Origin: Candidatus Methanosuratincola thermotaenarum
GTDB lineage: Archaea; Thermoproteota; Methanomethylicia; Methanomethylicales; Methanomethylicaceae
Assembly (NCBI GenBank): GCA_038801655.1
Contig: JAULTB010000004.1
Span: 1-37,063 of the forward strand
DNA: 37,063 nucleotides
Direction: 5' to 3'
Position 1 is the stretch's first letter. Each line of letters opens with the position of its first letter. The notes beneath the pieces were generated by a model that saw nothing but the letters and a program-made list of their open reading frames with translations, did no database searches and was not told the origin of the DNA. The position numbers and the translations under genes were made by a program. Shown piece by piece: positions 7,936 to 35,119 of this stretch.

Positions 7936-7949
7936 TTCATATCACCTGT

Positions 7950-20629: not shown

Positions 20630-21862
20630 ATGCACAAAAAATCTATTTTCATGCCTCTTATGCTGATCTTTGCTTTGGCGCTGATCTCCTTTTCCCCTGT
20701 TCGCGCTGAAAATTTGACAGTGACCATAAATGCGTCTGGGATAGGCAGCGGCGCAATAGGAACAGTAATCAATTTTATGGGCACAAATGTCGCTGCTTCG
20801 CAACTGCCGAAGCAGTTCAGCGTGGCAAACGGCACGAATGCAACTTATGCATGGCAACAATACGTTACGGTCAACTCGACTTACAGGTTTGCATTTGTCA
20901 ATGCCTCAAAAACAACAATGATTGTCAGTTGCCTGCCAGGGATACCGCCGATTTGCCTATACCTGCCGTTCACAACAAACATGACTCAGAATGGTACCGT
21001 ACTCATCACAACCAATACCTCTATGAAGGCTTACTATTCCCCTGAGGTCTACTTGCAGTACGCCGCACCCGCCGGAGGTTCAGCGAACATCACCTCAGGA
21101 TGGCACTCGCCTGGCACAGCTCTTGTGATCTCAGCCACACCCAACTCAGGGTACAACTTTGATGGATGGACCACGACTGGATCGCTCTCAGTCCAAAACT
21201 CAAGCGCATCTGTGACAACGCTTACGATCAACGGACCTGGCACCGTCACAGCAAAGTTCGTAGTCGCCCCTCCCCCGCCATCCGGGTTCCCCATGGAGTA
21301 CGTAATCTTGATTGTTGCGGTCGTTGCTGTTCTCGGGATAGCGGGCGCATTCCTGATGAGAAGGAAGCCAAAGCCGCCGCCTGCCCCTAGACCAGTAGCG
21401 CTGAGGATAATCCCTGAAAAGAAGGAGATATTTGCAGACGGGCGTTCCTCGACAGACGTCGTTGTCGAGCTGGTGGATTCAGAGGGTAAGCCTATCAACT
21501 CTGATGTCGTGAGGGAAGTTCACCTGTCCGCCTCAGACGGTACAATTCCGCAATCTGTAACCATTCCAAAAGGCGCATCATCAGCAAGGGTCCAGCTGTC
21601 ATCTTCAATTCGCGTGGGTCAGGTGAATTTGACTGCATCGTCAAAGGAACTTCAATCCGCCCAAGCGGCAGTTGCCTTCGTTGAAAAGAAGCGGTACTGC
21701 ATGGTCTGCGGACAGAGGATGCCTATCGATGCTAGGGTCTGCCCGAGCTGCGGAAGCGCTCCGCCCTCAGGCGCAGATACAAAAGTATGCCCGAACTGTG
21801 GGGCCGTCATACCTATCGTGGCAAAATTCTGCAGGGAGTGCGGAGCAAGCCAGCCTGCATGA
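20630..21862 (+). CDS. Bitopic membrane protein: signal peptide, extracellular beta domains (InlB B-repeat-like), TM, Ig-like domain, double zinc ribbon
   Basis: Signal peptide (VRA-E), many NxS/T sites, ATPNSGYNFDGW repeat motif, TM followed by RRKPK, ADGRSSTDVVVEL (invasin/Big-like), four CxxC at the C-terminus. Confidence 0.75.
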   Translation: MHKKSIFMPLMLIFALALISFSPVRAENLTVTINASGIGSGAIGTVINFMGTNVAASQLPKQFSVANGTNATYAWQQYVTVNSTYRFAFVNASKTTMIVSCLPGIPPICLYLPFTTNMTQNGTVLITTNTSMKAYYSPEVYLQYAAPAGGSANITSGWHSPGTALVISATPNSGYNFDGWTTTGSLSVQNSSASVTTLTINGPGTVTAKFVVAPPPPSGFPMEYVILIVAVVAVLGIAGAFLMRRKPKPPPAPRPVALRIIPEKKEIFADGRSSTDVVVELVDSEGKPINSDVVREVHLSASDGTIPQSVTIPKGASSARVQLSSSIRVGQVNLTASSKELQSAQAAVAFVEKKRYCMVCGQRMPIDARVCPSCGSAPPSGADTKVCPNCGAVIPIVAKFCRECGASQPA

Positions 21863-21910
21863 CCAATTCTTATATCCTTCTTTTTTTATGATATGGTATA
21901 GGGGAGTCTT

Positions 21911-22306
21911 TTGGGTTCCATTGCCGCAAAATTAGGCGATTTTGTAAATGCGACTGACGTCCACATGGTCATGATGCCTTCTCCCGGAGGCCCTGTTCCT
22001 GTTTTTGTGAGCCTACCTTTCCTTGGTCCTATTGCAGAACAGGTCAGCAAGGATGTTTTCATTGGGGGTTTGCCTGCAGCGACTGTGGGCAGTGTTGCTA
22101 TCAATACGTCGCCCCACATAGCCCCGCCTCCAGGAACCTTTGCGAAGCCTCCTTCGAACAAGGCCCAGATCGTCGATGGAAGCAAGAGCGTATTCATAAA
22201 CGGCAAACCGGCAGCCCGGGCGGGCGATCCCGCATTGACTTGCAACGATCCTGTTGATATGCCGGTCGGAACTGTTGTGGCAACGGGGAATGTATTCATA
22301 GGCTGA
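21911..22306 (+). CDS. PAAR spike-tip protein
   Basis: VFIGGLPAATVG and VFINGKPAARAGD repeats; His/His/Cys candidate Zn ligands; ends VFIG. Confidence 0.92.
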   Translation: MGSIAAKLGDFVNATDVHMVMMPSPGGPVPVFVSLPFLGPIAEQVSKDVFIGGLPAATVGSVAINTSPHIAPPPGTFAKPPSNKAQIVDGSKSVFINGKPAARAGDPALTCNDPVDMPVGTVVATGNVFIG

Positions 22307-22372
22307 CGGTTTGATTTTAAGGGCGGGCACCATCGACTAAAAAGGGGATTGGTTGAGACATATTAAAAAAGT

Positions 22373-23065
22373 TCAACCAACCTTCCCCTTGCCAATCTCT
22401 ATCCTCTCTATCACGCCAACCTCAAACTCCACTGAAATCTCCTTCTCCGCGATGCAGACGATCCTCAACCCGTCCTCCAGCCGTATCCCTTTCAACGGTC
22501 TGATTCCGATGCCTCGCCTTTCAAAGGCATCCGATTCGGCGAGCAGGACCTTGACAACTTCCTCGGCGAGGGAATCCGTCTTCTGGCTATCGCCCCCCCT
22601 GATGTCGATGAAGTACTTGGAGATGAGCTTGAGCGCCCTCCTCAGCACATCTGCCCTTGTTCTGTAAGAGATCATGGCTTTCCATACTGGCTGCCTGAAT
22701 TCGATTATCCCTGCCTTGTAGTCGACTGTATACCCTTCACCCTCTGCTATTTTTGTCCAGCCCTCCTTTCCCGCCTCCTGTTCTTTACGCTCGAGTATTT
22801 GGACCTCTAGGCTGCCCCCCTCTGGTTTGTTCTTGAGCCTCTTCCTTGCTTCGTCTCTTTTCAGTTCGAGGACTTCGCTGATCTCTACCGTCTTGGAACC
22901 CTCGCTGTCGACTGCCTGCTGAGCCCCGAACTTGAAGCCCCCGCAGGCAACCCCCACTGAGGGCGTGCCCTTGAGGCGGCCCCCTGCTCCAACCTGATCC
23001 CCCGAAACCCCTTTGAGGTTTTTGCGGAGAGTCTCAATAAGAATGCCTTCGATCTCTTGCAGCAT
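22373..23065 (-). CDS. Hypothetical CIS protein, candidate tail terminator/cap (Pvc16/DUF4255-like)
   Basis: Last gene of the operon. N-terminal helix MLQEIEGILIETLRKNL resembles terminator N-termini; internal YTVDYKAGIIEF beta insert. Confidence 0.4.
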   Translation of the reverse strand: MLQEIEGILIETLRKNLKGVSGDQVGAGGRLKGTPSVGVACGGFKFGAQQAVDSEGSKTVEISEVLELKRDEARKRLKNKPEGGSLEVQILERKEQEAGKEGWTKIAEGEGYTVDYKAGIIEFRQPVWKAMISYRTRADVLRRALKLISKYFIDIRGGDSQKTDSLAEEVVKVLLAESDAFERRGIGIRPLKGIRLEDGLRIVCIAEKEISVEFEVGVIERIEIGKGKVG

Positions 23066-23071
23066 TTCATG

Positions 23072-23758
23072 TCACTCTTGCAGAATGGCCCCGGATCGGA
23101 TCCTTGATGAATAGTGTATGACATTGCCAATCCTGGGAGCGCACTCAGGGTTAGTATTCCTGAACGTGACTGTGAGCACTTCTTTCTCAGGGGAGGGGTT
23201 CTTAGCCCTGTAACGGTACCACACATTCTCGTTTGGGGAGAGCAGATATTCGATGTAAGGGTTATCGGTCCCCTTCGGCCTTAGCTTGGACCTCTCGTGC
23301 ACGTAAAGGCCATTGACCACCGCGCTCGTGCCGTCGATGTACTCAAATGTTATCTCGAGCGTCTTCCTGTCCCCGTTCTCTGACCCTGACCAGTAGTCCA
23401 TTGACTCGAACTTTGCGGCGACTCCGAACCTGCAAATTACCCCTTCGGATCCCCTTTGAGCAACCCATTGCCTCGTGATCAGCCCGACCACTGGAGAGTC
23501 GTATGAGGTCTTCTCCCCTGGCACAACCTCGTTCAGTGCGTAGGAGGTCCCGACAGGGCTGACCATGTTGAGAAGGGTCTCTGTCTGCTCCATGCTGTCG
23601 ATGTAGTCCCTCAGCTTCTGGAGTTTTGCCTCGAGCTCTTGTATGTCCCCAAGGATCTCCTCCTGCATCCTGTTCCAGTCCTCAGACCTTATCACTTCAC
23701 CAGGCTTTCTCAGAATTGGCTTGAATTTGCCCACAAACTCACACTCCTTTTTGATCAT
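23072..23758 (-). CDS. Hypothetical CIS protein, candidate short fibre/receptor-binding protein
   Basis: Follows the wedge genes. PGEVIRSEDWN motif, then a coiled coil, then a beta-rich domain. Confidence 0.4.
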   Translation of the reverse strand: MIKKECEFVGKFKPILRKPGEVIRSEDWNRMQEEILGDIQELEAKLQKLRDYIDSMEQTETLLNMVSPVGTSYALNEVVPGEKTSYDSPVVGLITRQWVAQRGSEGVICRFGVAAKFESMDYWSGSENGDRKTLEITFEYIDGTSAVVNGLYVHERSKLRPKGTDNPYIEYLLSPNENVWYRYRAKNPSPEKEVLTVTFRNTNPECAPRIGNVIHYSSRIRSGAILQE

Positions 23759-23768
23759 TGCCCATTGG

Positions 23769-24686
23769 TTAAATCACCCTGACTCTTGATGACACACCAG
23801 CGGCCCTCATCCTCGAGACGAATCTCTCTACTTCCCCGACCCCTAGGCCGCTCCTCTCAAGTGCCCCCGATTTGATCCTCACCTCGAAGGAGGCTGGGGC
23901 ATGGCCTTCCCATTCAAACCTGATCTTCAGATACGGAATCCCCTTGGTGAACGTGTGCTCGTCGAACTTTGCAGAATCGAAAACACCAAGCAGCCCGCTC
24001 AGGGACTCGCTGTACTTCCAAACGGATCCCTCCCTGAGGAGCTTGGGGAACCCCTTGACCTCGACCCTGTCCGCCACATCCTCCCCGTTGAGCTCCGCTA
24101 TTCCCTTGGAAAGAATTAATTCCTGACCGCCAACCAGCGTTCCTTTGTAGGTTACAGTGTCGCCTGTCTTCAGGTTTGTCAGCGTCGGGTCCTTGACCTC
24201 CCCGCCCTCCTCCACCGAAACCCTTATCCTCGGATCTACATCCTCCACAGTCCTGCTGCTGATTGTCCAGGTCTCGCCTGCCATGACTTTCACCTCTTCT
24301 GAGAGTGAAAGGAGTGGGTTTTCGACGATCTCGATGTCTCCTTCCGACGAAGTTCCTATCAGGCCCATGACCGATTCGAGTATGGCCCTGACCGTGCCTC
24401 CCCCTCGGTAGTCGCTCACTGCCCTGCGGATCCTCGACCTATACTTCTCGTCGTCCTCCCCTCGCATTCTCTTTGAAACAACGGCTGCACCCAGGCGGTC
24501 CAGGTCTGGGCCTCTGGCGGAATCTACCCAGTGCGCCCTCATTATCTCAGCTACCTGGTCATCGGCGTCGTCGAGCTGGGATGCGAAGGAAGACATGAAA
24601 GCGTAGAGAAGCGATCCCTTGTCCCATCCCTTGTAGAACTTGGGGAGCCTATCGCACATCTTTTCTGCTCTACTCATACTTCTCAC
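23769..24686 (-). CDS. Baseplate wedge protein (P2 gpI / T4 gp7-like) with inserted beta domain
   Basis: RLP..Y, VDSARGPDLDRLG, GEDDEKYRSRI, GGGTVRAI and terminal RAAGV. Confidence 0.7.
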   Translation of the reverse strand: MRSMSRAEKMCDRLPKFYKGWDKGSLLYAFMSSFASQLDDADDQVAEIMRAHWVDSARGPDLDRLGAAVVSKRMRGEDDEKYRSRIRRAVSDYRGGGTVRAILESVMGLIGTSSEGDIEIVENPLLSLSEEVKVMAGETWTISSRTVEDVDPRIRVSVEEGGEVKDPTLTNLKTGDTVTYKGTLVGGQELILSKGIAELNGEDVADRVEVKGFPKLLREGSVWKYSESLSGLLGVFDSAKFDEHTFTKGIPYLKIRFEWEGHAPASFEVRIKSGALERSGLGVGEVERFVSRMRAAGVSSRVRVI

Positions 24687-26247
24687 GCACCCCGAATGTG
24701 ACGCTCACATTCCTCGGGATTGCCCTCTCGTCCGTTTCGATCCTGATGTTCTCGCCCCGACTGAGCAGGGGCTCCCCGGTCCTATAGGCTGCAAGCTTAA
24801 GGTCCCTCACGTCCCAGACCCCGTCCACCGCCAGGCACGAGGCTATTATTTTTGAATACAGGACGTCCTCGGCGATCTTCAGCGATGCTATGTAGCCCCT
24901 GACCGATGCCTCCACATCCCTTAGGATCCTTCCTGGATCCGATGGCGCCTCAATGATGACTGTCATCGATACATCGATATGCACTACCTTGGGCCTCAAG
25001 AATTCCACCTTGATGCCTGCTGCCCTGGTCTCGTCTATGACCCTCCTTATCTCTGCCTCGTCACCACCATCCACGACGACCCTGACTATGCCTGGGACCC
25101 CTCCTGGCATCTCGTCGATGAGTATGGAATTAACGCCCTTGATCGACTTCAGGGCGGAATCGAGTGATGAAGGCGTAGCCTTGGCTGCGAACTCCAGCGC
25201 ATGCCTTGCCCTCTCCCTGAGCTCTTCGTCTGTCTCTGCTTCAGATCCGTTTGAGATGTCCCCCTTGTTTATCACATATTCGACCCCGATAACCGGCTGC
25301 GGCATTATTGTTATTGCACCTGCGGGGACATTGCCCTTCTTTCCAGGCACTGTGCAGACGACCGACACGTCACACTCCCATCTCCCCCCTTCGGCAGGGT
25401 GCAATACCCCATCTTCTGTTGTCAGGAACACCTTTGCATCTTCAGGGGTCGTAGAGAATGTGGAAACCTTTGTGTTCTTTGGGACCTTTATCTGCTGGAA
25501 TGCCGTATAATCGATCTTGAAGACTGTGCGGGGGTCTGGCTTTCTGCCTCCTGGGCGCCATGCCAAACTCCTTCCGGACAAGCCGTAGTCAGATGTCGTG
25601 AAGACCGTGGCCTGCCCGCCAGAGATGCCTTCGACTTTGGTTATCTCCTTGACCAGCGCGTTCTTCAATTCGTAGCTCTCGGAGCCGTCGTAAAGATGGA
25701 CCTCTCCAGCCACCTCGATCTTCTCTGGCTCGCTTGTCCTCCCGAATGTTACCCTTCCTGAAGAAGGTCTCGGCAGCCTCCTTGTAATCCCTAGGAGCGA
25801 GACGGTCATCTCCAGCGCCTCGCCGGTTGCAGTGTCGAGGAAACCCGCCCGGTATGCGGCATCGAGCTGTTCGTAAAGGAACTCGATCTCCCTGCTTATG
25901 CCCTCGACGAGCGTCCTGAGCACGCTCCCGGTGCTGGTGTCCGTAAGCCCGCCGGGTCTGGCATACCTGTATGTCACTGCGAATGTGGTTCCTTCATCCG
26001 GTCTTGCCCCGCCTGCGATCCACTCGACTGTGTTGCCTGAGAGCCTGTAGTCCTTCGCACTGGAGAACTCTGTCTCCTTCCTCATGTATATGCCAGAGAT
26101 CTTGATGATTTTGGTGACAGGGGCATTTGCAAGACGGTAAGTCGCCCTGCTCCCTTCGTACTTGAAAGCCTCTGACGCCTCTACGCCCGTTATGCGTCCC
26201 AGGACATCTTCTGTTATCTGATCGTAGCCCTTAACCTTGAATGGCAT
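24670..26247 (-). CDS. Baseplate J / gp6-like wedge protein
   Basis: GSVLRTLVE, FLDTATGEALE, GITR, GKKGNVPAGAIT, GSEAETDEELRER and AAGI. Confidence 0.9.
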   Translation of the reverse strand: MPFKVKGYDQITEDVLGRITGVEASEAFKYEGSRATYRLANAPVTKIIKISGIYMRKETEFSSAKDYRLSGNTVEWIAGGARPDEGTTFAVTYRYARPGGLTDTSTGSVLRTLVEGISREIEFLYEQLDAAYRAGFLDTATGEALEMTVSLLGITRRLPRPSSGRVTFGRTSEPEKIEVAGEVHLYDGSESYELKNALVKEITKVEGISGGQATVFTTSDYGLSGRSLAWRPGGRKPDPRTVFKIDYTAFQQIKVPKNTKVSTFSTTPEDAKVFLTTEDGVLHPAEGGRWECDVSVVCTVPGKKGNVPAGAITIMPQPVIGVEYVINKGDISNGSEAETDEELRERARHALEFAAKATPSSLDSALKSIKGVNSILIDEMPGGVPGIVRVVVDGGDEAEIRRVIDETRAAGIKVEFLRPKVVHIDVSMTVIIEAPSDPGRILRDVEASVRGYIASLKIAEDVLYSKIIASCLAVDGVWDVRDLKLAAYRTGEPLLSRGENIRIETDERAIPRNVSVTFGVREKYE

Positions 26248-26248
26248 G

Positions 26249-26683
26249 CTATGCCACCTCCAAGTGGAACGGATACCTTATGCTCAAGATCCCCCCTCCT
26301 GATGCTGGTATGATCGTGATTTCTATCGTGACCAGCCCCGGGTCGTCCCTGTCTGGGATTGCTGTGACCGAGACCAGCTCCCGGATCCTCCTCTCCCCGG
26401 CAAGGCTCGACTCCACCGCCCTGTGGATGAGGCTCATTGACCTCTCAGTCCTGGGCTGCCCCAAGACCTCGCTTAGCCTCGAGCCATAGCCGCTGTGCCC
26501 CAGCTCCTCCATCTCCCCAACTGCTGTCGAGAGCCTGCAGATTATCGCCTGAGCCAAGTTGTCGATCCCCTCGATTGTTGCCAGGTCGCCAGACTTATCC
26601 ACTGCCAAGTCTGCACCGGTGCCGTCTATCCTTAACCTAAGATCCCTGCCCAATTTCTCATCGCTCAAAGCATCCCCTCCCAA
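26249..26683 (-). CDS. gp25/GPW-like sheath-initiator wedge protein
   Basis: GDLATIEGIDNLAQAI..RLST..GE...H..YGSRL and ERRI. Start may be TTG 26668. Confidence 0.85.
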   Translation of the reverse strand: MGGDALSDEKLGRDLRLRIDGTGADLAVDKSGDLATIEGIDNLAQAIICRLSTAVGEMEELGHSGYGSRLSEVLGQPRTERSMSLIHRAVESSLAGERRIRELVSVTAIPDRDDPGLVTIEITIIPASGGGILSIRYPFHLEVA

Positions 26684-27451
26684 TCAGTTTATGTTGACTA
26701 TGCCGCCCTTGATCTTGACCGTGGCCGTCCCCTCAACACTGGCCTGCACTCCAGCACTTAGCTCTGCGTTGTTCGAGGCAGTGTTTTTCAGGTTGTTTCC
26801 GGCTGTGACATTGACATCTTTCCCGCCGTCCACATTGACGTTATTGCCTGATGATATGCTTAGATCTTCCTCGGTGGTTATCTTAAGGTTTGACGCGGAG
26901 ATTGAAATGTCCCCCTCGGCCTCGATTGCCGTGTCGCCCTTGGACTTGACCTTGACGTCACCGTTCGCCTCAATTGTGACATCCCCGCCCCTCTGGATCG
27001 TGACCCTCGTCGCCCCCGCGGTTACCGTCACCTCCGCGTCCTTGAGGCATACTTTCATGCCTCCTGGGAGCTGGATGTAGACTCTTCTCAACTCCTTGTC
27101 TTCCTCATAGGGCACAGAATAAACCAGCTCCCCGGTCTTGCTGACGGGCGGGCGGTCTTTTTCGTTGTAAATGCGCCCTATCACTATCGGGAAGTTCAGG
27201 TCCCCCCCAACAAAGTCTATTAGCACAAGATCTCCGACGGAGGGTGGCACGACCAGCCCGTATGCAGCGGTTGCGATCTGGACCCCCCTGAGCTCCAGCT
27301 CGCTGTTCTTGAGCCTGACGTTGCACTCGTAATTATCCTTGTCCCCCTCACTTGAATGAGGGAATACGGATGTGACTATCCCCAGCTCAGGCGTCCTGAG
27401 CTTGCTTATCTCCTTCCTTGCCACGTCTTTCATAGCCTTGACTATGCTCAT
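26684..27451 (-). CDS. Baseplate spike (P2 gpV / gp5-like OB fold plus beta-helix)
   Basis: LGIVTSV, PPSVGDLVLIDFVGGD..PIVIGRIYN, then ~8-residue beta repeats ending KIKGGIVNIN. Confidence 0.9.
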   Translation of the reverse strand: MSIVKAMKDVARKEISKLRTPELGIVTSVFPHSSEGDKDNYECNVRLKNSELELRGVQIATAAYGLVVPPSVGDLVLIDFVGGDLNFPIVIGRIYNEKDRPPVSKTGELVYSVPYEEDKELRRVYIQLPGGMKVCLKDAEVTVTAGATRVTIQRGGDVTIEANGDVKVKSKGDTAIEAEGDISISASNLKITTEEDLSISSGNNVNVDGGKDVNVTAGNNLKNTASNNAELSAGVQASVEGTATVKIKGGIVNIN

Positions 27452-28413
27452 TCCAACTTCCTCCTGCAGGTAAAAGTGCTGGTGAAGCCCATTGAGGCGC
27501 TGAATCTGTGCTCAACCCTGGTGACCTCATGCGAACCCTCAATCTCACGGTCGTCAAAGCCCTCGAGTGTAATGGTGTCCCCAACCCTTATGCCCGGCTT
27601 CCCCTCTGACTTCACGTTAAGCATCACCGTGTATTTCGATGCCTCGAGCAGCGCTTCGCCTGCCTTTTCCGCACTCTCGCTGCTCTTGAGAGATGCCTCT
27701 GCTATAGCCAGCGACCTCTCCCCGCCCTTTGTGAACTTGAGCTCCTCTTTTGCAGCCCAGTGGTAGGTCTCTGCCCCCTTGGAGCTGACCGGGCTCTCCC
27801 CGAAGACCGCGACCCCATCGTATGGAGGCCCCTTCCTGATTGCCCAGACCTCCAGGAGATCCTTCCCGTAGGAGAACCTGTGCTCCTTGCCCCCTCCAGG
27901 TCTCCTGAATATGAGCTTCCCGTCCTTGTCAAAAAAGGCGTCCGCGCCGCAAAGCTGGCCAAGCCTGACAATGTGCTCGAGCAGGTTCGAGCGATCATCG
28001 ATGGCGTAGTACGGGTAATTGATCCCATTCTCGAATTCCTTCACGTCAACGCCCGCCTCTTGCGCGAGCGTAACCACGATCTCTCCTGAGGTGCGGCTCA
28101 GGAAAACCATGTTTGACCTCTTCCTGAGCAGCTTCGAACCGATCCCGTCGATCGAAATCAACACCGAATTGAGCCTCACCTCTGCCCTTGCAACATTCCC
28201 GACCATAATCTTCTCCAACGACCCGTCATAACCGAGCTTGAGCTCCGCCTCTTCCAGGGGCTTGAATCTGTACGATGATTCCTTGCTTATGACCGCAGTT
28301 ATCCCGTCCACGGGGAGCCCCATTCCGCAGCTCGACATGATGAAGCTTATGCCGTCACCTGTGCTGAACACCTTATCCCCTATCCTCAACTCGAATTCAG
28401 GGTGCTTCATCAA
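27448..28413 (-). CDS. Baseplate hub (gp27 / Mu gp44 / P2 gpD-like)
   Basis: LGYDG, TSGEIV..LA, FFDKDGKLIF, GKPGIRVGDTI and VTRVEHRFS..GFTS; lies upstream of the spike gene. Confidence 0.82.
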   Translation of the reverse strand: MMKHPEFELRIGDKVFSTGDGISFIMSSCGMGLPVDGITAVISKESSYRFKPLEEAELKLGYDGSLEKIMVGNVARAEVRLNSVLISIDGIGSKLLRKRSNMVFLSRTSGEIVVTLAQEAGVDVKEFENGINYPYYAIDDRSNLLEHIVRLGQLCGADAFFDKDGKLIFRRPGGGKEHRFSYGKDLLEVWAIRKGPPYDGVAVFGESPVSSKGAETYHWAAKEELKFTKGGERSLAIAEASLKSSESAEKAGEALLEASKYTVMLNVKSEGKPGIRVGDTITLEGFDDREIEGSHEVTRVEHRFSASMGFTSTFTCRRKLE

Positions 28414-28449
28414 ACTCCCGCCATATTTTGATTATCCTATTTGCCCTTT

Positions 28450-29436
28450 TCAGAGGCTTTTTTTCGGTCCATCTTTTGGGGCGTCCTGGGAAACTGGGTC
28501 GAAGAGCCCGCCCTTGATCCCGCCATCCTCGCCAGCTGCGGCATCTCCTTCCTTGTCCTCAGCGTACTTCTCTTCACTCTTCGCTGGTCTGGACTTCTCT
28601 GCTCCTTTTTCCTCCTCCAGCCCCCTTCCCTCCGAGGCGCCCCCCTCATCCTTGAGCTCGCCCGATTCCTTTTCCTTTCCCTGTCCCTTCTCCTCCTCTT
28701 TCTCTCCAGGCCCTTTGCCTTCCTCCTCTTTGATTGCTCCTTCTTTTTCCTGATCCGCCTTCCCGCCGCCCTCTTTCTCGCTCTTTATTCCTGCTTCCCC
28801 TTCGCCTTTTGGCGTCCCTTCGGCAGCCCCCTTCTCCAGCTCTCCTTTCCCTTCCGGGGCCCCTTCCTTTTCCTTGGGCTTCTCCTCTCCTTTGCCCCCT
28901 TCCTTTCCTCCTTCGTCCTCCTTGCCGCCCTCCTTCTCCTTCTCTTTCGTGATCTCCTTCGTCTTCTCCTCGACTTCCTTATCCGCTTCCCCCTTCTGGC
29001 TTGGTGCACCCTTTTCTCCTGCGCCTTCCTCTGGGGGCGGCTTCGCCTCCCTGAGAAGCATTGTATAGCTGATCTCCAAGGGTATCCCTTCGTGGACCCT
29101 CGCCGAGAACCCCTCGAAGATGATCGTTGTTATGTCTTCGATTGCCCAGATGTCAGACGAGAACGGGATGAGCTCGCCTGAGTTGAACTTGGTTCTGATT
29201 GCCTTCATCGTATCCGAGGCTCCCTTGCCAATCAGCCTCCCCTCTAGCCTCACACACCGGGGATCCCTCCCCATGTCTTGGAAGATGTTCGATTGCGATC
29301 CAGGCACTGGGAGCTCGACCACCTTCCTCCTCGCCGAGACATGGACCTCGTGGACGCTCCTTATCTCGATGGTGGCGCCCTCCTCGTCAACGCGCTTTAT
29401 CAGGTCAATGTCGTCAAGCTTGATATACACGCTCAT
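28450..29436 (-). CDS. Tube-initiator-like protein (gpU / DNA-circularisation N-terminal type) with ~200 aa Glu/Lys/Gly-rich tail
   Basis: VELPVPG...QDMGRDPRCVRLEG N-terminal domain ending YTMLLRE, followed by a low-complexity charged region. Confidence 0.65.
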   Translation of the reverse strand: MSVYIKLDDIDLIKRVDEEGATIEIRSVHEVHVSARRKVVELPVPGSQSNIFQDMGRDPRCVRLEGRLIGKGASDTMKAIRTKFNSGELIPFSSDIWAIEDITTIIFEGFSARVHEGIPLEISYTMLLREAKPPPEEGAGEKGAPSQKGEADKEVEEKTKEITKEKEKEGGKEDEGGKEGGKGEEKPKEKEGAPEGKGELEKGAAEGTPKGEGEAGIKSEKEGGGKADQEKEGAIKEEEGKGPGEKEEEKGQGKEKESGELKDEGGASEGRGLEEEKGAEKSRPAKSEEKYAEDKEGDAAAGEDGGIKGGLFDPVSQDAPKDGPKKSL

Positions 29437-31166
29437 CCCTCACCGTAGTGCCTCCGCATCTCATCCTCGATTATCCTTGAGATCTTCCTCTGCAGCTCCA
29501 AGAGATCCCCATCGCCATCGACTGTGACGTTGACCCTCAATTCCCTTTGCATCGGGTATACTTGGGACTCCTCGAGCTCCGCCGGAACCGGGAGCCTCTC
29601 CGCCGCTGCCTCGCGCCCCCCATCAATGCCCGTTCTCGCCTCTTCAACATGGGGGAGAGCCAACTGCGGAGCGATTATGCTGGACCTGACCTCCTCAGCC
29701 ATGGCAGCAAGGTTGAGCGCTGCAAGAGGCACCCCTTTCCAGGGGGCTGGCAACCCGCTCCCCAGCAAGGGGCTAACGGAAGGCACTCCCGCGGTCGCAA
29801 CCTGTCCGTCAGCGACCTGCCTGTTGGGAACCGCTTGGGCTGCAGGGGGCAGTATTCTTTTCCGGCCGGGCAGCCCGAGTGCTATTGTTGGTACAGAAAG
29901 CGCAAATAGCGCTGGGGAAACTGCTTCGAATATGGGCTTCCAGATGCCTGCCGCCTTGCGTAACTCCGTCCTCTCAATCGCGGCAGCGAGAGGCAAAAAT
30001 GCCGCCCCTCCTGAACCGGTCCCATGCTGGAACTTGAACCCTTCCAATCCGTGCCCTATTGGTACGCCTTCCACCTCTTGGGCCCTTGCTAGTGCCATCC
30101 CGCCTGCTTCAGGCGGCACCATTCCTTTACCACCGATCTCTGTGCCTCCAGTCAGTGTCGAGGCTCGCGGAAGCTGCTTCCTGGTCGCCTCAGCCACTGC
30201 CGGCATCCTGATGCCCGTTCCCGTGGCCGCTGCCCCTTCCGCAATGCCTGCCACGCCGCCCCTTCCTTCGCGCATCGGCTGGGACCCCGGGAGCTCGATT
30301 CCGGGAGGTGATTGGATGCCTGCTGGCGGGGAGGGTGCTTCTGTCGGCTCCGAAGTGCCTGCTGGTGCGGTGCCAGCTGCCTTCCATTCGAGAGGCAGGG
30401 CCCGTGGTGCCCATCCGCGGACCGCGCTCCCTGCGGCGCCTGATAGAGCAACTGTTGACTTTGCGCCTAGCACCGCCGCAGTTGCCAGGAAACTGGATGT
30501 AAGGGCCAAACCGCTGGGACCTGGGATCTGGTGGATCTTCCTCCCAACTCCCTTTCCGTTTTCCTTTTCGGGCATGGTTATGCCTGCGGCTCGAGCAGGC
30601 TCTTCCCCTATCGCTGTCCCTGATGACGGGGCTGGCATGTAAGCGCCCCAGCTTTCCTCCCCCCCGGGCTCCGGTCCCTCCCCCTCAACTGATGTGGGAA
30701 TGACGGATGTTTCACCCTGGTGTGGCGCAAAAGCAGAGGGCATATGCTTGGAGATCGCGCTGGAGTACGCACCAGCGGCCTTTGCGACGCTCCCTGCGGC
30801 TGAGAGGCTCAGGATCACTGTGAGCGGCGCTGTTCCCCGCCTTGGGGATGATAATCTCCCCTTTCTTGGTGCTATTGCACCAGATCCTGCTGTGGACCTG
30901 CCCTTTTGAGGAGACCAAAGCAAACCGCCGGAATAGGGCGCAGAAACCCTCGCAATCGTCGCCACTCCAGTGGCTGCCGCCCTGACCGCCTCCTGGACCT
31001 TGTAGAACAACCAAAGTAGCGACCTGAGGCTCCTGATCACGGCCCTCAGCGCCCTGGAGGATGCCCATGCTCCAGTCACCATGAGGTGCGCACTGAGCGC
31101 GCCACCTCCTGTGCCTGCGTACCCCTGCTTGAGCCTCCTGCTCAAAAGATCCCAGATTGTACTCAT
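29433..31166 (-). CDS. Tape-measure-position protein (Ala/Gly/Pro-rich, 577 aa)
   Basis: Lies between the chaperones and the tube initiator. C-terminal LRVNVTVDG..LQRKISRIIEDEMRR resembles tape-measure C-termini; ATGA-coupled to the next gene. Confidence 0.55.
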   Translation of the reverse strand: MSTIWDLLSRRLKQGYAGTGGGALSAHLMVTGAWASSRALRAVIRSLRSLLWLFYKVQEAVRAAATGVATIARVSAPYSGGLLWSPQKGRSTAGSGAIAPRKGRLSSPRRGTAPLTVILSLSAAGSVAKAAGAYSSAISKHMPSAFAPHQGETSVIPTSVEGEGPEPGGEESWGAYMPAPSSGTAIGEEPARAAGITMPEKENGKGVGRKIHQIPGPSGLALTSSFLATAAVLGAKSTVALSGAAGSAVRGWAPRALPLEWKAAGTAPAGTSEPTEAPSPPAGIQSPPGIELPGSQPMREGRGGVAGIAEGAAATGTGIRMPAVAEATRKQLPRASTLTGGTEIGGKGMVPPEAGGMALARAQEVEGVPIGHGLEGFKFQHGTGSGGAAFLPLAAAIERTELRKAAGIWKPIFEAVSPALFALSVPTIALGLPGRKRILPPAAQAVPNRQVADGQVATAGVPSVSPLLGSGLPAPWKGVPLAALNLAAMAEEVRSSIIAPQLALPHVEEARTGIDGGREAAAERLPVPAELEESQVYPMQRELRVNVTVDGDGDLLELQRKISRIIEDEMRRHYGEG

Positions 31167-31198
31167 GATCTCCGGTCCAGTCTTTTTTATGGGGCCTC

Positions 31199-31408
31199 CT
31201 AGTCCTCTACCACTTCGATCCGGGTTATCCCCTCTGCGGCCAGCCTCGCAGCCTCTGCAACCCTCTGCCTGTGCGCCATCGCAGCCGTCAGGAAGAGTAT
31301 CTGGTCCCTGGTCAGGTCGCCAGGCCTGTCCGCAAACTTGTACCCGCAGTCTAGGCAGAGGGCCGCGAGCTCAAGCCCTTCCGGGCTCCTAACGAACTCG
31401 TCGATCAT
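31199..31408 (-). CDS. Tail assembly chaperone extension (gpT-like)
   Basis: Overlaps the end of the upstream chaperone right after an A9 run; DLTRDQILFL motif; no SD visible. Confidence 0.6.
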   Translation of the reverse strand: MIDEFVRSPEGLELAALCLDCGYKFADRPGDLTRDQILFLTAAMAHRQRVAEAARLAAEGITRIEVVED

Positions 31409-31772
31409 CTTTTTTTTTAGGGGCTTCCACGCCTGCCACGCCGCTCATCTCGAGGATCTTCATGCCAATGTACTCCGGAACCCCGAATTTCATCGATGCG
31501 ACCTCTTCGACCGTCAGCTTGGGTTCGACCATCCCCATGGACACCACCAGCCTGAGCGCCTCGAAGTTCTTGGAGAGATCCACCTTTGAGAAGTCGGGAG
31601 CCCCGTCCTCCTTGAGGCTCACCGCGCCCACCGTGGCAAAGACCTTGGTCAATTCGCCGTCGGTCAGGGGGCGGATCACTACGTCAGCTCCGTACTCCTC
31701 GACATGGACCGTAGCCCTGGCATTAGCTCCCTCGAGTATGGCCTGTTTAGTCAGGCGTGGGCTCTCAGCCAC
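31389..31772 (-). CDS. Tail assembly chaperone (gpG-like)
   Basis: Lies right after the tube gene. VVIRPLT, GMVEPKLT and ILEMSG are typical; ends in a KKK slippery run. Confidence 0.7.
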   Translation of the reverse strand: MAESPRLTKQAILEGANARATVHVEEYGADVVIRPLTDGELTKVFATVGAVSLKEDGAPDFSKVDLSKNFEALRLVVSMGMVEPKLTVEEVASMKFGVPEYIGMKILEMSGVAGVEAPKKKDDRRVR

Positions 31773-31775
31773 CTA

Positions 31776-32174
31776 TCACTCCTCCCTGAGCCTGGTCGCC
31801 GTCCAAGTGTAGTCAGTCACTCCTACACCGTTTGCGTCCATCGCGAAGCTCTTGCCCTCAAGGTAGCAATCGTCGAAGATCAGCTTCTTCACAGTGCTGC
31901 CCCACTTCTTCAGCTCAACAACTAGCTGGAACGAGTTCTTCTCAGTCACGCTGCTGAGCAGCTTCTTGTCAAACGGAGGGTATGTGGACCTGACCCGCAT
32001 CGACCCCGAGATGAACATTGGGCCATAGTCGACGCCAATCCTCTCGTCGACTCCGATGTGATGTATGTTCTGGCGGTTCCTGACTATCTTGTACTCTATC
32101 GACATAAGCCCGGGTATCGTCTTCCCGTCGACCGTGATGCTGCTCACATTCGCGGATATTATTGACTCTGACAC
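31776..32174 (-). CDS. Tail tube protein
   Basis: 132 aa beta-rich protein immediately downstream of the sheath; GTG start after a GGGGGTGA SD. Confidence 0.75.
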   Translation of the reverse strand: MSESIISANVSSITVDGKTIPGLMSIEYKIVRNRQNIHHIGVDERIGVDYGPMFISGSMRVRSTYPPFDKKLLSSVTEKNSFQLVVELKKWGSTVKKLIFDDCYLEGKSFAMDANGVGVTDYTWTATRLREE

Positions 32175-32188
32175 TGCGCTTCACCCCC

Positions 32189-33556
32189 TCACGCCTGGAC
32201 CGTTATGGTTGCGTAGATGTAATCCATCGCCCTCACAGGCCTCACCGCTATGTCAACGCGGACGACCCCCTGCGCAAAGTCCATCTGCGAGGAGTAGACG
32301 TCCACCAGGAATGCCGGCTCCTTGCCGTCTGTGCTCGGGACTATGGCATTCTCGCGCTCCATCTGGATCATGAACTCCGTGATCTTTTCTTTCAAAGCTC
32401 CCCGACCCTGGGCTGTGTTGAGGGTCCCTATGAAGTTCTCCGAGATGTTCTTGGTCCCTCTCACAGCATGGTCGGCTATCCTTATTACGCTGATCTGCTC
32501 CTTGCTTGTGGTGATCGCTTTCTCCACGATTAGCCCCCTGCCGCGCCGAGCCTCGATCGCGAGAACTCCTGCCTTGAGAAGCTCCATCAACTCAGATGGG
32601 GTGTACCTCCTTTCAAGCTCTGCGATCCCTGTCAGCGCCTTGAATGTCGGAGATTCGTAGTAGTTCAGCCTGCTTATCAATCCGGCAACCGCACCGGCGA
32701 CGCCATAAGGGGCGACAAGCACGAACCTGTCGCTGGCTAGAGCGCTGGTCCTCTTAACGATCTCCTGGACGCTCTCGCCTGGCCCGACCGTGCCGATCCC
32801 AATGCGGTTCTTGGCGTCCTTGCTCATGTTCATGCAGTGCGCGTCGACCATGGCGTGGACCTTCGGATCCCAGCAGTCCGCTACCAGCACTACGTCAACA
32901 TCCTCCTCCATCTCAAGCATCTCGAGTGCCTTCTCGTAGGATGAAGGATCTGGCTTCGAAGTGACGCCGCCCTCGAACTGCCCTTCGCCGACCATGAGCG
33001 CCTTTGATGCAGCTTTGCCCCTCTTCCCGAGGTCCTTAGCGGTCGCAAGCTTAGAGCCCCTGTTTATCACATCGACCGCGTAGAGCTCGCTCGACCTGTC
33101 CATTGTTATATTGTCGAATGCCTCGAACCTCGTACCGTCGGTAATCTGGAGCGAGAAAGAGCCCTCTATCGCGCCGGCTGAGACTGAGTATCTCAGCTTA
33201 TTTCCGGATTCCCCCACGTACCTTGCTTCAAGCCTCAGCGCCTCCTCCCCCTCCGCGTCCTTCAACACTGCGGATGCATTCGCTGTCCCAGCGGCCTCTA
33301 TGCGGGTCGCAAAGACCTCGAATACACCATTCATGAAGCAAATCCTGGCCTCCTTAGTCAGGCTGAAGGAGAGATCAGAACCGAACTTCTCCTGGTACTC
33401 CCTGTAGCTAGTGACTGGGACTGGCGTCAGGATCGGTCCCTTCTCGGCGGTCCCAATGATCCCGACGACTCCGGACGGGTGGAGCTGCTGGGGCACTATC
33501 TCCTTGACTACCTGAACCTCTACACCTGGAAGAATTCGTACCAAATTAGACCCCAT
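32189..33556 (-). CDS. Contractile tail sheath protein
   Basis: LPGVEVQ, GIIGTAEKGP..PV.VTS..EY..FG, F.NG, RIAD, FIG..N...R and C-terminal VRPVRAMDYIY. Confidence 0.93.
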   Translation of the reverse strand: MGSNLVRILPGVEVQVVKEIVPQQLHPSGVVGIIGTAEKGPILTPVPVTSYREYQEKFGSDLSFSLTKEARICFMNGVFEVFATRIEAAGTANASAVLKDAEGEEALRLEARYVGESGNKLRYSVSAGAIEGSFSLQITDGTRFEAFDNITMDRSSELYAVDVINRGSKLATAKDLGKRGKAASKALMVGEGQFEGGVTSKPDPSSYEKALEMLEMEEDVDVVLVADCWDPKVHAMVDAHCMNMSKDAKNRIGIGTVGPGESVQEIVKRTSALASDRFVLVAPYGVAGAVAGLISRLNYYESPTFKALTGIAELERRYTPSELMELLKAGVLAIEARRGRGLIVEKAITTSKEQISVIRIADHAVRGTKNISENFIGTLNTAQGRGALKEKITEFMIQMERENAIVPSTDGKEPAFLVDVYSSQMDFAQGVVRVDIAVRPVRAMDYIYATITVQA

Positions 33557-33569
33557 TTTTATATCGCTG

Positions 33570-33600
33570 AAAATTGTATATAAGCGTATTTAAAAAATTT
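33570..33600 (-). promoter_or_regulatory. Putative TATA promoter of the CIS operon (leaderless or short leader)
   Basis: Minus strand TTTAAATA and TTATATAC lie 20-38 nt upstream of the sheath ATG. Confidence 0.45.
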
Positions 33601-33708
33601 AAATCAAGGTTATAGTTAATTGAAAAGCCTTTCAGGACCCCTGCGGGAGCAAGCATTCTACGTTGTATATTCTCTAATGCTTTTATTCCCTCCTGAGCTA
33701 TTTGACCT

Positions 33709-34195
33709 ATGGGAAAAAGGAAGAGCTGGTCCGAAAAGCTGAACGAAGACAAAGGCCTTCTTAGGGTGGTCAAGATCGAGGGGGAAATGGCGCGAAGGTG
33801 GGGGAGGGGACTGTGGCGATACCGTCGCCAAGGGAAGTCTACGAGATAATGAAATCCGTGCCAGAAGGGAGGGTCACCACTGTCAATGGGATCAGGTCTG
33901 CCCTGGCAAGGAGGCACGGCGCGACGATCTGCTGCCCATCACCACGGGCATCTTCGCATGGATCTCCGCCAATGCATCCGAGGAAGAGAGGGTGATGGGT
34001 GGAGAAGGGATACCGTACTGGAGGACGCTCAAGGCAGGAGGTTTCGTCAACGAGAAGTACCCTGGCGGGATTGAGGCCCAGAGGGATATGCTGGAGAAGG
34101 AGGGCCATCACCTGGCGCCGAAGTTCACAAAGGGCAGAACTGTGGGGTGCGCCGTCCTAAACCTGGCTGAAAAGCTCCATAAGCCTGCGCCCTGA
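33709..34195 (+). pseudogene. MGMT/alkyltransferase-like DNA-binding protein split by two 1-nt frameshifts (pseudogene or sequencing error)
   Basis: Three frames join to MGKRKSWSEKL...WGEGTVAIPSPREV...VPEGRVTT...CCPITTGIFAWI...PYWRTLK. One G is missing at 33800-33804 and one C at 33935-33937. Confidence 0.75.
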
Positions 34196-34251
34196 ACGCT
34201 CATGCTTTTAAATCATCGGCTGCATCTTTTTCTATCATAGGTGTTGAATTC

Positions 34252-35118
34252 ATGCTGAACCCCTGGCTGATCCTCGGCCCCTCTGGCATGGTGATTGTAG
34301 GCATCTTCTACATGCTCTTCTGGAGGGAGAGGGTGAAGCGCGAGTCGGGAAAGGGCGTCCCCCTCAGGTTTTTCATATTTGGGGGCCTGCTTTGGGCTGC
34401 AGCCATTATCCCGAAGATCATAATGGACTACACTGTGACGCAGCCGCTCTATTTCTGGTGGGCTTCGTCATTTGGCGCATTTGGCGCCCTTCTTCTGCTC
34501 GGGGTATACGTGGGGTTGAGGACCGGCATTTTTGAGTGCGGGGCTGCTTACCTGGGATTCAGGGCGTTTGCAAAGGCCGCTCAGGTCAATGAAGCCGGTA
34601 GATCAAGCGCATCTTCCGGGGAAGGTGCGGCTGTGCAAAAAATGGGGTACAGCGAGGCTGTTGCAGTTGGGGTTGGGTTCGGTGCCTTCGAGGCTATTGT
34701 CCTGGCACTCCCGTCGCTCGTGCAGATGGCAGCCATCTTCCTGGACCCGTCGATCCTCTCCAGCCTGCCCCCAGAACAGGTTGCCGCGATCGAATCGCAG
34801 CTGAGCCAACCGACTTGGATGGCTGCTGCCGCAGCCTGGGAGAGGGCCTTCGCCATACTCGCGCACATCTTCGCCACCGTGCTCGCCTATCTGTCGGCGG
34901 CTCACAGGCGCCTGATCCTCCTCGGCGCTGCGGTCGCCTACAAGTCCGCGCTGGACGCCCCGATCCCGATCCTCCAGGCTGCCCTCGCCAATTCCCCTTA
35001 CTACATTGTTATTACCGAAGCATTCGTCGCAGTCATAGGCTTGATAGGCCTCCTCGGGATGCTGAACATAGACACGATAGCCCCGAGGGACACAAGTGTT
35101 ATTAGAAATGGGCAGTAA
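34252..35118 (+). CDS. YhfC/PrsW-like intramembrane glutamic protease family protein
   Basis: Multi-TM; GIFEC (FEE-like), GVGFGAFEA and ERAFAILAH motifs. Confidence 0.7.
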   Translation: MLNPWLILGPSGMVIVGIFYMLFWRERVKRESGKGVPLRFFIFGGLLWAAAIIPKIIMDYTVTQPLYFWWASSFGAFGALLLLGVYVGLRTGIFECGAAYLGFRAFAKAAQVNEAGRSSASSGEGAAVQKMGYSEAVAVGVGFGAFEAIVLALPSLVQMAAIFLDPSILSSLPPEQVAAIESQLSQPTWMAAAAAWERAFAILAHIFATVLAYLSAAHRRLILLGAAVAYKSALDAPIPILQAALANSPYYIVITEAFVAVIGLIGLLGMLNIDTIAPRDTSVIRNGQ

Positions 35119-35119
35119 G

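Follow-up and report, generated by a model that had tools for sequence, protein, structure and literature searches.

A headless contractile-tail gene cassette in Methanosuratincola-type archaea, conserved beside a zinc-ribbon membrane protein

What is a contractile tail doing in the chromosome of a methanogenic archaeon when no phage head is found with it? This question is raised by a 37,063-nucleotide (nt) stretch of DNA from Candidatus Methanosuratincola thermotaenarum (contig JAULTB010000004.1, assembly GCA_038801655.1, forward strand), here called the window, which is a whole contig (C66) of a 1.09-Mb genome in 75 contigs that is 79.7% complete. A sequence-only reading of the window had seen, at positions 21911 to 33556, a head-less contractile injection machine with the architecture of a phage tail rather than that seen in extracellular contractile injection systems (eCIS). 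Our analysis leads to the conclusion that the locus holds a full and conserved set of contractile-tail genes, headless and kept by purifying selection, and we consider it highly probable that it encodes a functional, selected, headless contractile machine. The coordinates and the gene list of the earlier reading were right, although the "12-gene operon" it spoke of has 13 genes (its own list had 13 items).

The 13 open reading frames (ORFs) of the operon are all co-directional on the minus strand (22373-33556), with intergenic gaps of -20 to +36 nt, and a PAAR gene on the plus strand (21911-22306) is convergent with them. From the sheath end, the features of the cassette are as follows (lengths in amino acids, aa):

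33587..33603, minus strand: TATA-like AT-rich element ~30 nt upstream of the sheath start, a candidate operon promoter by sequence reading
32189..33556, minus strand: contractile tail sheath, 455 aa (PF04984 3.4e-19, PF17482 1.1e-8, phrog_279 2.4e-57)
31776..32174, minus strand: tail tube protein, 132 aa (fitting position and size; sub-cut-off PF18906 Phage_tube_2 matches)
31389..31772, minus strand: "G" tail assembly chaperone, 127 aa (position between tube and tape measure; ends 12 codons past the A-run; no family match)
31410..31418, minus strand: A9 slippery run at the G/T junction (sequence reading)
31199..31408, minus strand: "T" partner of the tail assembly chaperone G, 69 aa (frame +1 with G as reference; starts directly after the A-run)
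29433..31166, minus strand: tape-measure-like protein, 577 aa, rich in A, G and P (by position between chaperones and initiator, composition and variable length only)
28450..29436, minus strand: protein in the tube-initiator (gpU) position, 328 aa (PF07157 DNA_circ_N E=0.0027, 18.6 bits, under the cut-off of 21)
27448..28413, minus strand: baseplate hub of gpD/gp27 type, 321 aa (phrog_52 1.8e-8; hhalign with P2 gpD 95.9%, 300 columns)
26684..27451, minus strand: central spike of gpV/VgrG C-terminal type, 255 aa (PF04717 31.9 bits, cut-off 23.8; DUF2345 3.5e-7; hhalign with P2 gpV 71.9%)
26249..26683, minus strand: gp25/gpW-like sheath initiator, 144 aa (PF10934 1.2e-5, sub-cut-off; phrog_975 3.7e-18; hhalign with P2 gpW 91.8%)
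24670..26247, minus strand: baseplate J/gp6-like wedge protein, 525 aa (PF04865 4.5e-25; phrog_6 7.1e-53)
23769..24686, minus strand: baseplate wedge protein of gpI/gp7 type, 305 aa (phrog_1160 9.5e-19; TIGR02242 under its cut-off)
23072..23758, minus strand: conserved protein in the tail-fibre position, 228 aa (zero Pfam, PHROG, NCBIfam or PDB matches)
22373..23065, minus strand: probable tail terminator or cap, 230 aa, with an inserted beta domain at ~aa 60-135 (matches of family members)
21911..22306, plus strand: PAAR spike-tip protein, 131 aa (PF05488 1.8e-16; phrog_281 6.1e-12)
20630..21862, plus strand: bitopic membrane protein, 410 aa (Pfam Zn_Ribbon_1 4.1e-12, DZR 5.4e-10, Flg_new_2 1.1e-11)

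The window gene is the only sheath match in its genome, and of the solved structures the one that it matches best is 9ezm, entered as "Phage tail sheath protein FI" (574 aa; source organism not given; E=6.3e-11, over ~108 N-terminal residues). For the tube, PF18906 gives E=0.084 with the window protein, and 5e-5 and 1.8e-5 with its ~70%-identical relatives P0284 and P0312, all of them sub-cut-off; its ratio of non-synonymous to synonymous substitutions (dN/dS) is 0.00-0.10. Orthologues of the tape-measure-like protein vary from 440 to 745 aa, with conservation confined to the C-terminal end. The initiator-like protein consists, in the alignment, of an N-terminal domain of ~135 aa that is conserved and a low-complexity, K/E/G-rich tail of ~190 aa that is specific to the lineage; its best hhalign partner is P2 gpU, at a non-significant 3.5%, and an hhalign comparison of the tube profile with the initiator profile was also not significant. 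The K/E/G-rich tail (window 28450-29020) is long only in the Methanosuratincola-type copies and that of G009 (a genome of another genus in the same family), and most orthologues end at 161-175 aa. The hub additionally matches NF033848 VgrG_rel at 1.3e-8, under the cut-off. Profile searches of the PDB gave no match for the tube, the 228-aa protein and the initiator-like protein and chance-level matches only for the 230-aa protein, and Pfam, PHROG and NCBIfam returned nothing for G, T, the tape measure and the 228-aa protein. Transmembrane (TM) helices were sought in the operon proteins, none of which has one.

The G and T frames, where conventional family searches are silent, carry a feature of their own. 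The A9 run at their junction is found in 10 of 10 genome loci, with differing bases beside it, and T (64-74% identical across phyla) lies in the -1 frame in seven of these and in the +1 frame in three, all three being Methanosuratincola-type. Among the 66 metagenome loci with both a G and a T ORF, the run is A9 in 53, A10 in eight and A7 in five, and T is in the -1 frame in 47, in the +1 frame in 19 and in frame with G in none. Across genome and metagenome loci the recoding signal is kept in 76/76. As far as sequence can tell, overlapping ORFs with a conserved A-run are the signature of G/G-T tail assembly chaperones. RNA folding on either side of the run (60 nt upstream, z = +1.68; 69 nt downstream, z = -1.22) did not find a stimulatory structure.

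The same run could be followed in RNA libraries, using the assembled contigs of two metatranscriptome runs and one DNA run from one mixed culture, which were mapped on the locus of G002, a closed 1.5-Mb genome of the same genus (97% complete). The RNA-library contigs match this locus at no less than 99% in 30/30 and 28/30 bins, with coverage gaps over the baseplate genes. At the equivalent of the A-run (L012 14061-14069, T9 on the plus strand), the single crossing contig of one run has two additional A and that of the other run three, and the DNA contig of the same study (depth ~1110) has no extra A; these two or three A are the sole difference between RNA and DNA contigs. Two extra A shift reading to +1, which is the T frame in this genus. 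Since the insertions are confined to RNA, it can be argued that the RNA-library contigs are not carried-over DNA, and they suggest, short of proof, that the cassette is transcribed. Transcriptional slippage is the simplest reading of these contigs, with slippage of the reverse transcriptase or of the assembly as alternatives, and the combination of a conserved A-run and RNA-only insertions is a candidate for programmed transcriptional slippage by archaeal RNA polymerase.

Two genes at the end of the operon had been left as unknowns, of which one can probably be named and the other stays without a family. The 230-aa window protein itself has zero family matches. Its family comprises 260 representatives at E<=0.001, and among 75 aligned members there are matches to PF23932 SP10_terminator (4/75, best 1.7e-6), DUF2460 (14/75) and Tail_completion_gp17 (2/75); the DUF2460 matches are probably due to the inserted beta domain, which recurs in very long proteins. 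A language-model look-alike search of the Atlas likewise leads from this protein to an SP10_terminator cluster (0.91). On these matches, the last operon gene is a candidate tail terminator, and probably is one. The 228-aa protein probably starts 8 codons further downstream, giving ~220 aa (the Atlas record begins at residue 9). Its profile gathers 308 clusters, all "hypothetical" and without a Pfam domain, and the 120 that are listed share 56-94% identity with the window copy at lengths of 215-228 aa; its dN/dS is 0.07-0.10. A protein in the fibre position with this degree of conservation is unlike a receptor-binding fibre or host-range determinant.

Is the gene set maintained, or is it a leftover? 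G002 has intact copies of all 13 operon genes and of the PAAR and membrane-protein genes at the same ilvC-yhfC site, with 84-99% aa identity. More distantly, 12 of the 13 operon genes were detected in the same order in G009 (29-78% identity) and in G035, from another family of the same class (32-66%), both of which have at the tape-measure position an ORF with a weak local tblastn match only. Four Bathyarchaeia and two Hadarchaeota metagenome-assembled genomes (MAGs) carry the cassette as well, with sheath identities of 64-74%. The closest named relative of the sheath belongs to Candidatus Methanosuratincola verstraetei (99% identical), and other matches come from Thermoproteota, Candidatus Methanomethylicus, Bathyarchaeia/Bathyarchaeota and Hadarchaeota MAGs and from one alphaproteobacterial MAG (L026, 40%). 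Metagenome contigs hold 286 relatives, and gene order is unchanged in all 80 loci examined, within the reach of each. Four oil-field metagenome runs from a single study contain near-identical DNA, and two of the four are possible sources of the window. The alphaproteobacterial copy has a 601-aa sheath, a tube of 36% identity, a 459-aa spike and an internal PAAR gene, with no zinc-ribbon neighbour among the four ORFs read downstream; with this bacterial relative, the cassette lineage spans both domains.

Selection was measured against two close relatives (Nei-Gojobori), giving dN/dS of 0.00-0.22 for 12 of the 13 operon genes and ~0.5 for the tape measure, and the GC content at third codon positions (GC3) is 0.697 in the cassette vs 0.704 in the host genes on the contig. 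The distribution is patchy: the sheath is found in 9/61 relatives, including two fragmentary or weak matches, and the 228-aa marker in 12 of 401 sampled genomes of the phylum and 7 of 161 genera. In a sheath tree (FastTree, 14 sequences, bacterial copy as root), the same-class G035 falls outside a clade of Bathyarchaeia, Hadarchaeota and Methanosuratincola-family copies, which hints at transfer between lineages.

Several close relatives show how the locus is lost. In G004, a closed, locus-free genome of the same genus, the equivalents of window 16571-20856 and 33525-36299 abut, with a five-base microhomology, inside the membrane-protein gene (~77 codons kept) and after codon 8 of the sheath. 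A break that cuts into both end genes implies deletion of window 20857-33524, not an empty integration site; the locus is chromosomal and ancestral in the genus. G007 and G003 retain only N-terminal pieces of the membrane-protein gene beside yhfC. In G018 an internal deletion has joined the sheath at residue ~134 to the product of the last operon gene at residue ~183; the membrane-protein homologue there is read in two frames, by frameshift or assembly error. One Bathyarchaeia MAG (L022, 8847-9224 and 17595-19176) holds a probably decaying copy, with J split into ORFs of 409 and 134 aa and a 125-aa remnant of the Ig/zinc-ribbon tail, its ribbon broken, upstream of the sheath.

These losses, the patchy occurrence in 12/401 sampled genomes and the damaged copies (split J in L022, a stop in G382) would all suit a recently inactivated prophage remnant that is drifting to loss. 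We find such a remnant scarcely credible: the window and the majority of relatives, from three lineages, have every gene intact, dN/dS lies at 0.00-0.22 for 12/13 genes, the locus is covered by RNA-library contigs, and the recoding signal has been kept in every one of the 76 loci. A decaying prophage, considered as a candidate, was rejected, being contradicted by synteny, dN/dS, host-like GC3 and the conserved recoding signal. Selection is purifying and not relaxed, and synteny together with dN/dS bears out the earlier view of a "domesticated" locus; it is kept by selection and sits at a fixed chromosomal site.

Could the head be encoded elsewhere? Six head-gene families were searched, each search giving matches in control genomes. 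PF05065 Phage_capsid, PF03237 Terminase_6N and PF04860 Phage_portal had zero matches in G002 and G000, and PF17289 Terminase_6C, PF03354 TerL_ATPase and PF04466 Terminase_3 zero matches in 5/5 locus-bearing genomes of the genus, so that all six are missing from the closed genome. The DNA upstream of the sheath was surveyed in 41 loci (36 metagenomic, 5 genomic) with at least 4 kb available on the 5' side, amounting to 337 kb and 339 ORFs of at least 80 aa. The commonest upstream family occurs in 7/41 loci, and the ten most recurrent representatives are a PfkB kinase, an ABC ATPase, a radical-SAM enzyme, an Mrp subunit, HycI, a fucosidase, PFOR-beta, GatD, GatE and one 550-aa protein, nine of the ten being housekeeping enzymes or transporters. 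A conserved head module adjacent to the tail would have been conspicuous in these 41 loci and none was seen, which argues that the cassette is headless, as had been claimed. The remaining representative belongs to a family of 506-550-aa proteins encoded on the minus strand 5' of the sheath in 5/41 loci (median distance 186 nt; L021 323-1975, L023 4713-6275, L024 8304-9824 and two metagenome loci), which has zero Pfam or PHROG matches and is absent from the window.

Other virus-related functions are equally scarce. Among the 40 window ORFs scanned against Pfam there are no capsid, portal, terminase, integrase, lysis, AAA+ or LysM proteins, in agreement with the sequence-only reading, and the sole ATPase is an ABC transporter subunit. 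No holin or endolysin family appears in the window ORFs or among the recurrent neighbours of the 41 loci, and no conserved ATPase stands beside related loci apart from ABC transporter subunits. Hallmarks of an integrated provirus (integrase, att site, tRNA) were not found at the locus, nor was a tRNA gene found in the window. The sheath gave one weak match against 50,697 phage records, and the five related IMG/VR contigs (9-15 kb) are all tail-only; no close intact provirus was found in phage records, IMG/VR or metagenome loci. Capsid and terminase matches do occur in G062 (Bathyarchaeia), the nearest of them ~750 kb from the cassette on the same contig.

One may still ask whether the locus is the tail module of an active virus, the genes for head and replication being at another place in the genome or beyond the reach of the models through divergence. 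Pfam models can miss the head proteins of archaeal viruses, the gene order is phage-like, a frameshifted chaperone is a phage hallmark, and IMG/VR labels the five related contigs viral. Against such a virus stand the blank results for six head families in closed G002, an ilvC/yhfC-like site without integrase, tRNA or att site, loss through deletions into the end genes and not by excision, the ~750 kb that separate the nearest G062 capsid/terminase matches from the cassette, and a GC3 equal to that of host genes. We regard an active virus as very improbable.

The slot order of the cassette is exactly that of the F operon of phage P2 (FI, FII, frameshifted E/E+E', T, U, D) followed by that of its V operon (V, W, J, I, fibre position), which makes "phage-like rather than eCIS architecture" a correct description. 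The two P2 operons are here fused into one, and recoding takes place on an A7-A10 run, with T in the -1 or +1 frame. Hub, gp25-like protein and spike are homologous to P2 gpD, gpW and gpV, respectively. For the sheath, tube, G, T, tape measure, J, I and both uncharacterised proteins, hhalign against single P2 sequences was not significant, which is no evidence against homology, given how weak single-sequence templates are. R-pyocins have the gene organisation of P2, and the cassette shares with R-type tailocins both this order and the lack of head genes; it differs from them and from P2 in having no lysis cassette and no recognisable (variable) tail fibre or fibre chaperone, in its PAAR gene and zinc-ribbon membrane protein, and in its archaeal host.

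This likeness invites the explanation that the product is an extracellular tailocin-like particle, which would be released by lysis or another route, bind other archaea via the 220-aa protein and kill by puncture in the manner of R-type pyocins. The P2-type tail order speaks for it, as do the G/G-T chaperones, the tape measure and the probable terminator, and the absence of head genes, AAA+ ATPase and recognisable cargo. It is at odds with the absence of a holin, endolysin or release gene from the window and the lack of any conserved beside the 41 loci, and with the strong conservation of the fibre-position protein, which is unlike fast-evolving receptor-binding proteins.

With Afp/PVC-type eCIS the cassette has in common the lack of a head, the sheath, tube, spike, gp25, J-like baseplate protein and PAAR, and probably also a last gene of terminator type. 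Afp loci have the tube gene ahead of the sheath gene and the tape measure after the baseplate genes, and we know of no G/G-T chaperone pair in Afp-type eCIS. Of the eCIS core, as given in the available part of PMC6899500, the sheath (Afp2-4), spike (Afp8), gp25 (Afp9) and J (Afp11) components have counterparts here, and the AAA+ ATPase Afp15 and the LysM-bearing Afp7 have none; for the terminator Afp16, the last operon gene is a candidate counterpart. According to the sections available to us, an eCIS survey covered one archaeal phylum only and deliberately excluded pyocin-like loci (PMC8213781), and a sheath survey listed homologues in Bathyarchaeota and Crenarchaeota, the loci of which it did not analyse (PMC9230969). 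No description of this cassette was found in the literature searched, whose scope left out supplements, and an earlier mention is possible. Together with its membrane protein, the cassette seems to be an archaeal kind of contractile injection device that had not been described before.

It is at the left boundary that the picture changed most. The cassette had been described as bounded by ordinary genes and as having no membrane complex. The outer flanks are ordinary indeed, with ilvC on one side and the gene of a YhfC-like protease on the other, but the boundary gene at 20630-21862, which had been overlooked, encodes a membrane protein with a double zinc ribbon that travels with PAAR and the operon across archaeal phyla. 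The PAAR gene begins 48 nt past it on the same strand, and PAAR is 58-67% identical to its orthologues. From the N to the C terminus, the 410-aa protein has a signal/TM segment (hydrophobic at aa 3-26), an InlB B-repeat ectodomain, one TM helix (hydrophobic at ~aa 216-246), a stretch that is basic and rich in proline, a Big_1 Ig-like domain and the double zinc ribbon, of which the last two would be cytoplasmic by the positive-inside rule.

A homologous zinc-ribbon tail adjoins the cassette in 11 of the 12 archaeal loci that can be evaluated, that is, those for which the relevant flank is available (G152 could not be judged): the window, G002, G009, G035, one Bathyarchaeia and one Hadarchaeota genome, three further genomes of the phylum and two IMG/VR contigs. 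The Bathyarchaeia and Hadarchaeota homologues are 38-41% identical over the tail, and in the three further genomes the tail is found at E ~1e-67 on the same contig as the 228-aa marker. The ectodomain differs by lineage, being an InlB repeat in the window, a PQQ beta-propeller in G009 and of other kinds elsewhere, so that the tail alone is conserved; the G035 homologue is without the Ig domain. Among six loci read at the sequence level, the membrane-protein gene lies directly 5' of PAAR on the same strand in five (window, G002, G009, Bathyarchaeia, Hadarchaeota), and in G035 the two genes are adjacent on one strand in reversed order. On this basis we propose the 410-aa protein as a putative membrane partner or anchor of the machine.

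Some loci vary around PAAR. In G035, the last operon gene and PAAR are separated by three additional genes of 162, 742 and 479 aa (L014 10461-14626), with zero Pfam or PHROG matches and no homologue in other loci; these are candidate cargo, effectors or fibres. In L058 (G382:C1:273000-292900), PAAR lies between spike and gp25, an additional 363-aa gene follows the initiator, the sheath, tube and chaperone genes are missing upstream and the zinc-ribbon gene nearby, and the 228-aa homologue has an in-frame TGA, which makes this a split or degenerating locus. PAAR is internal to the operon also in L055, as in the alphaproteobacterial locus.

Streptomyces CIS (contractile injection systems) are of the Afp type, with an ATPase. 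Two precedents for a membrane protein that serves a contractile system are relevant here, both taken from partial texts. In haloarchaeal membrane-bound CIS ("archaeal T6SS", after the type VI secretion system; clade IIa), a conserved membrane protein gene beside the cluster is the proposed anchor, with six TM helices, and these systems have a Cis15 ATPase, a Cis16 cap and toxin-immunity pairs but no tape measure (PMC11566945); that they have been characterised makes the earlier statement that archaeal CIS loci are mostly predicted only outdated, as far as this source shows. Judged by its description of the membrane protein, the two systems are alike in being archaeal, with an adjoining membrane protein gene and no outer-membrane complex, and differ in that our cassette has one TM helix with a zinc ribbon, a tape measure, and no ATPase or recognised toxin-immunity pair (PMC11566945). 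CisA of Streptomyces is bitopic and cluster-encoded, its cytoplasmic part is predicted to contact the CIS, and it is needed for firing while remaining outside the purified particle; the protein described here is likewise bitopic and cluster-encoded, and its cytoplasmic part would be the C-terminal Ig domain and double zinc ribbon, that of CisA being N-terminal (PMC12237407, available part). A membrane protein encoded with the cluster is the only resemblance of the cassette to both systems.

Taking the evidence as a whole, the best explanation in our view, held at a little under an even chance, is a domesticated, headless phage-tail CIS, chromosomal in a Methanosuratincola-type methanogen, that docks at the membrane and fires outward. 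In this scheme the operon would supply sheath, tube, a G/G-T pair, tape measure, initiator-like protein, hub, spike, the gp25-J-I wedges, the 220-aa protein and a probable terminator, with the G-T fusion made through slippage on the conserved A-run, and the convergent two-gene unit would provide the PAAR tip and the bitopic membrane protein. Assembly may follow the P2/Mu scheme, from hub, spike and PAAR through wedges and initiator to the tube, built on the tape measure with G and G-T, and then to sheath and terminator. The particle would thus be built in the cytoplasm, its length set by the tape measure, and would dock baseplate and tip first on the zinc-ribbon tail of the membrane protein, firing outward through membrane and S-layer into a neighbouring cell. 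The variable ectodomain may be the element of contact or target recognition. As no toxin gene is visible, the effect on the target would be puncture or the work of an effector yet unrecognised.

That the machine works docked at the membrane is, as a separate point, a tentative proposal to which we give somewhat less than even odds. It is favoured by the conserved zinc-ribbon neighbour, the variable ectodomain, the lack of a TM helix or lysis gene in the operon and the over-conserved protein in the fibre position, and it would follow the logic of haloarchaeal CIS (PMC11566945) and CisA (PMC12237407), as far as the available parts of these sources go. A released tailocin-like particle, for which the zinc-ribbon protein would be a regulator, a release factor or an unrelated passenger, leaves the conserved membrane partner without a role; we think such a particle unlikely, if a serious competitor, and "tailocin", in the sense of a released particle, is not supported here.

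The same membrane protein could also act inward. A cytoplasmic CIS might serve regulated cell death or abortive infection, with the zinc-ribbon protein recruiting the particle to the cell's own membrane under stress or virus attack. Regulated cell death is the function of the Streptomyces CIS, which with CisA provides the precedent (PMC12237407, available part), and the idea would account for the presence, next to the cassette, of a conserved, bitopic membrane protein whose interaction domain is cytoplasmic, for the joint absence of cargo, lysis gene and ATPase, and for the repeated loss of the locus in close relatives, which is common for defence and accessory systems. The large, lineage-variable ectodomain fits outward recognition better, however, PAAR tips are typical of outward-firing systems, and no link to known defence genes turned up, although no PADLOC scan was aimed at them. 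We judge a cell-death function improbable.

A number of observations weigh against a docked, outward-firing, headless machine. The tube, chaperone, tape-measure and initiator identities are the weaker ones, proposed from position or sub-threshold matches; the head-gene Pfam models are biased towards bacteria, and the window genome is incomplete. The tape measure, the G/G-T chaperones and the terminator are the kit of free phage tails and tailocins, and a recycling ATPase is absent. One IMG/VR variant encodes a soluble 200-aa zinc-ribbon protein without a TM helix, and G382 is the one evaluable locus without a zinc-ribbon gene, where a sheath or tube gene is also absent nearby and the 228-aa gene has an in-frame stop. 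Zinc-ribbon protein and cassette could move together as an inherited block without any contact between their products. Toxin families are missing among the Pfam-scanned window ORFs, and no immunity gene was recognised in the window. The RNA-library contigs, as assembled contigs only, do not prove transcription, and for particle, localisation and binding the putative machine is known here from its genes alone.

The surroundings of the cassette are those of an archaeal chromosome. By Pfam, the genes around it encode a proteasome alpha subunit, TatD, an ABC transporter, an aldehyde:ferredoxin oxidoreductase, ilvB/N/C and the YhfC-like protease, and the contig also encodes two MtmB-type methyltransferases and a corrinoid protein. 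The MtmB-family genes are in tandem (458 and 455 aa; window 6559-9988, minus strand) beside the gene of the B12-binding corrinoid protein; they have no in-frame stop and thus no pyrrolysine codon. The interval from the sheath promoter to yhfC holds two short ORFs (window 33798-34195, plus strand), which are in different frames and, taken together, are similar to a DNA-binding protein of MGMT/ATL type (the first has PF01035 at E=0.025); they look like the remnant of a frameshifted gene; G002 has just ~260 bp there, with no match, and one or both ORFs are matched in G004, G007, L016 and L018. A 137-aa ORF antisense to PAAR (window 21886-22299, minus strand), with no family match, can most probably be put down as a shadow ORF of PAAR, whose gene is GC-rich.

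Archaeal CIS have been studied experimentally only in haloarchaea, where they are of an Afp-related type with an ATPase, and this cassette represents a second, differently built lineage. Its host groups (Methanomethylicia, Bathyarchaeia and Hadarchaeota) are ones in which almost nothing is known of cell-cell antagonism or of virus-derived machines. A wider interpretation, which we consider doubtful though worth stating, is that the cassette is a distinct and widespread class of archaeal CIS, derived from a P2/Mu-type tail, that would act as a minimal, ATPase-free, contact-triggered, "type VI-like" weapon with a slippage-made chaperone fusion, with a one-pass receptor linking its firing to the cell surface. 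In methanogens as in Bathyarchaeia and Hadarchaeota, the fast-evolving ectodomain of this receptor would then sense or bind the neighbour, and its double zinc ribbon would hold the PAAR tip or baseplate.

The system is well suited to experiment, as the genus is in culture (members of Candidatus Methanosuratincola have been brought into culture, according to the available part of PMC12244365), RNA contigs from a mixed culture extend over the locus, and close relatives with the locus deleted offer natural controls. The A-run with its RNA-only insertions is a candidate for programmed transcriptional slippage in archaea. If the zinc-ribbon protein does act as dock or trigger, the cassette would be a very simple model for the change of a phage tail into a weapon anchored to the cell, its host having a membrane and an S-layer and nothing more.

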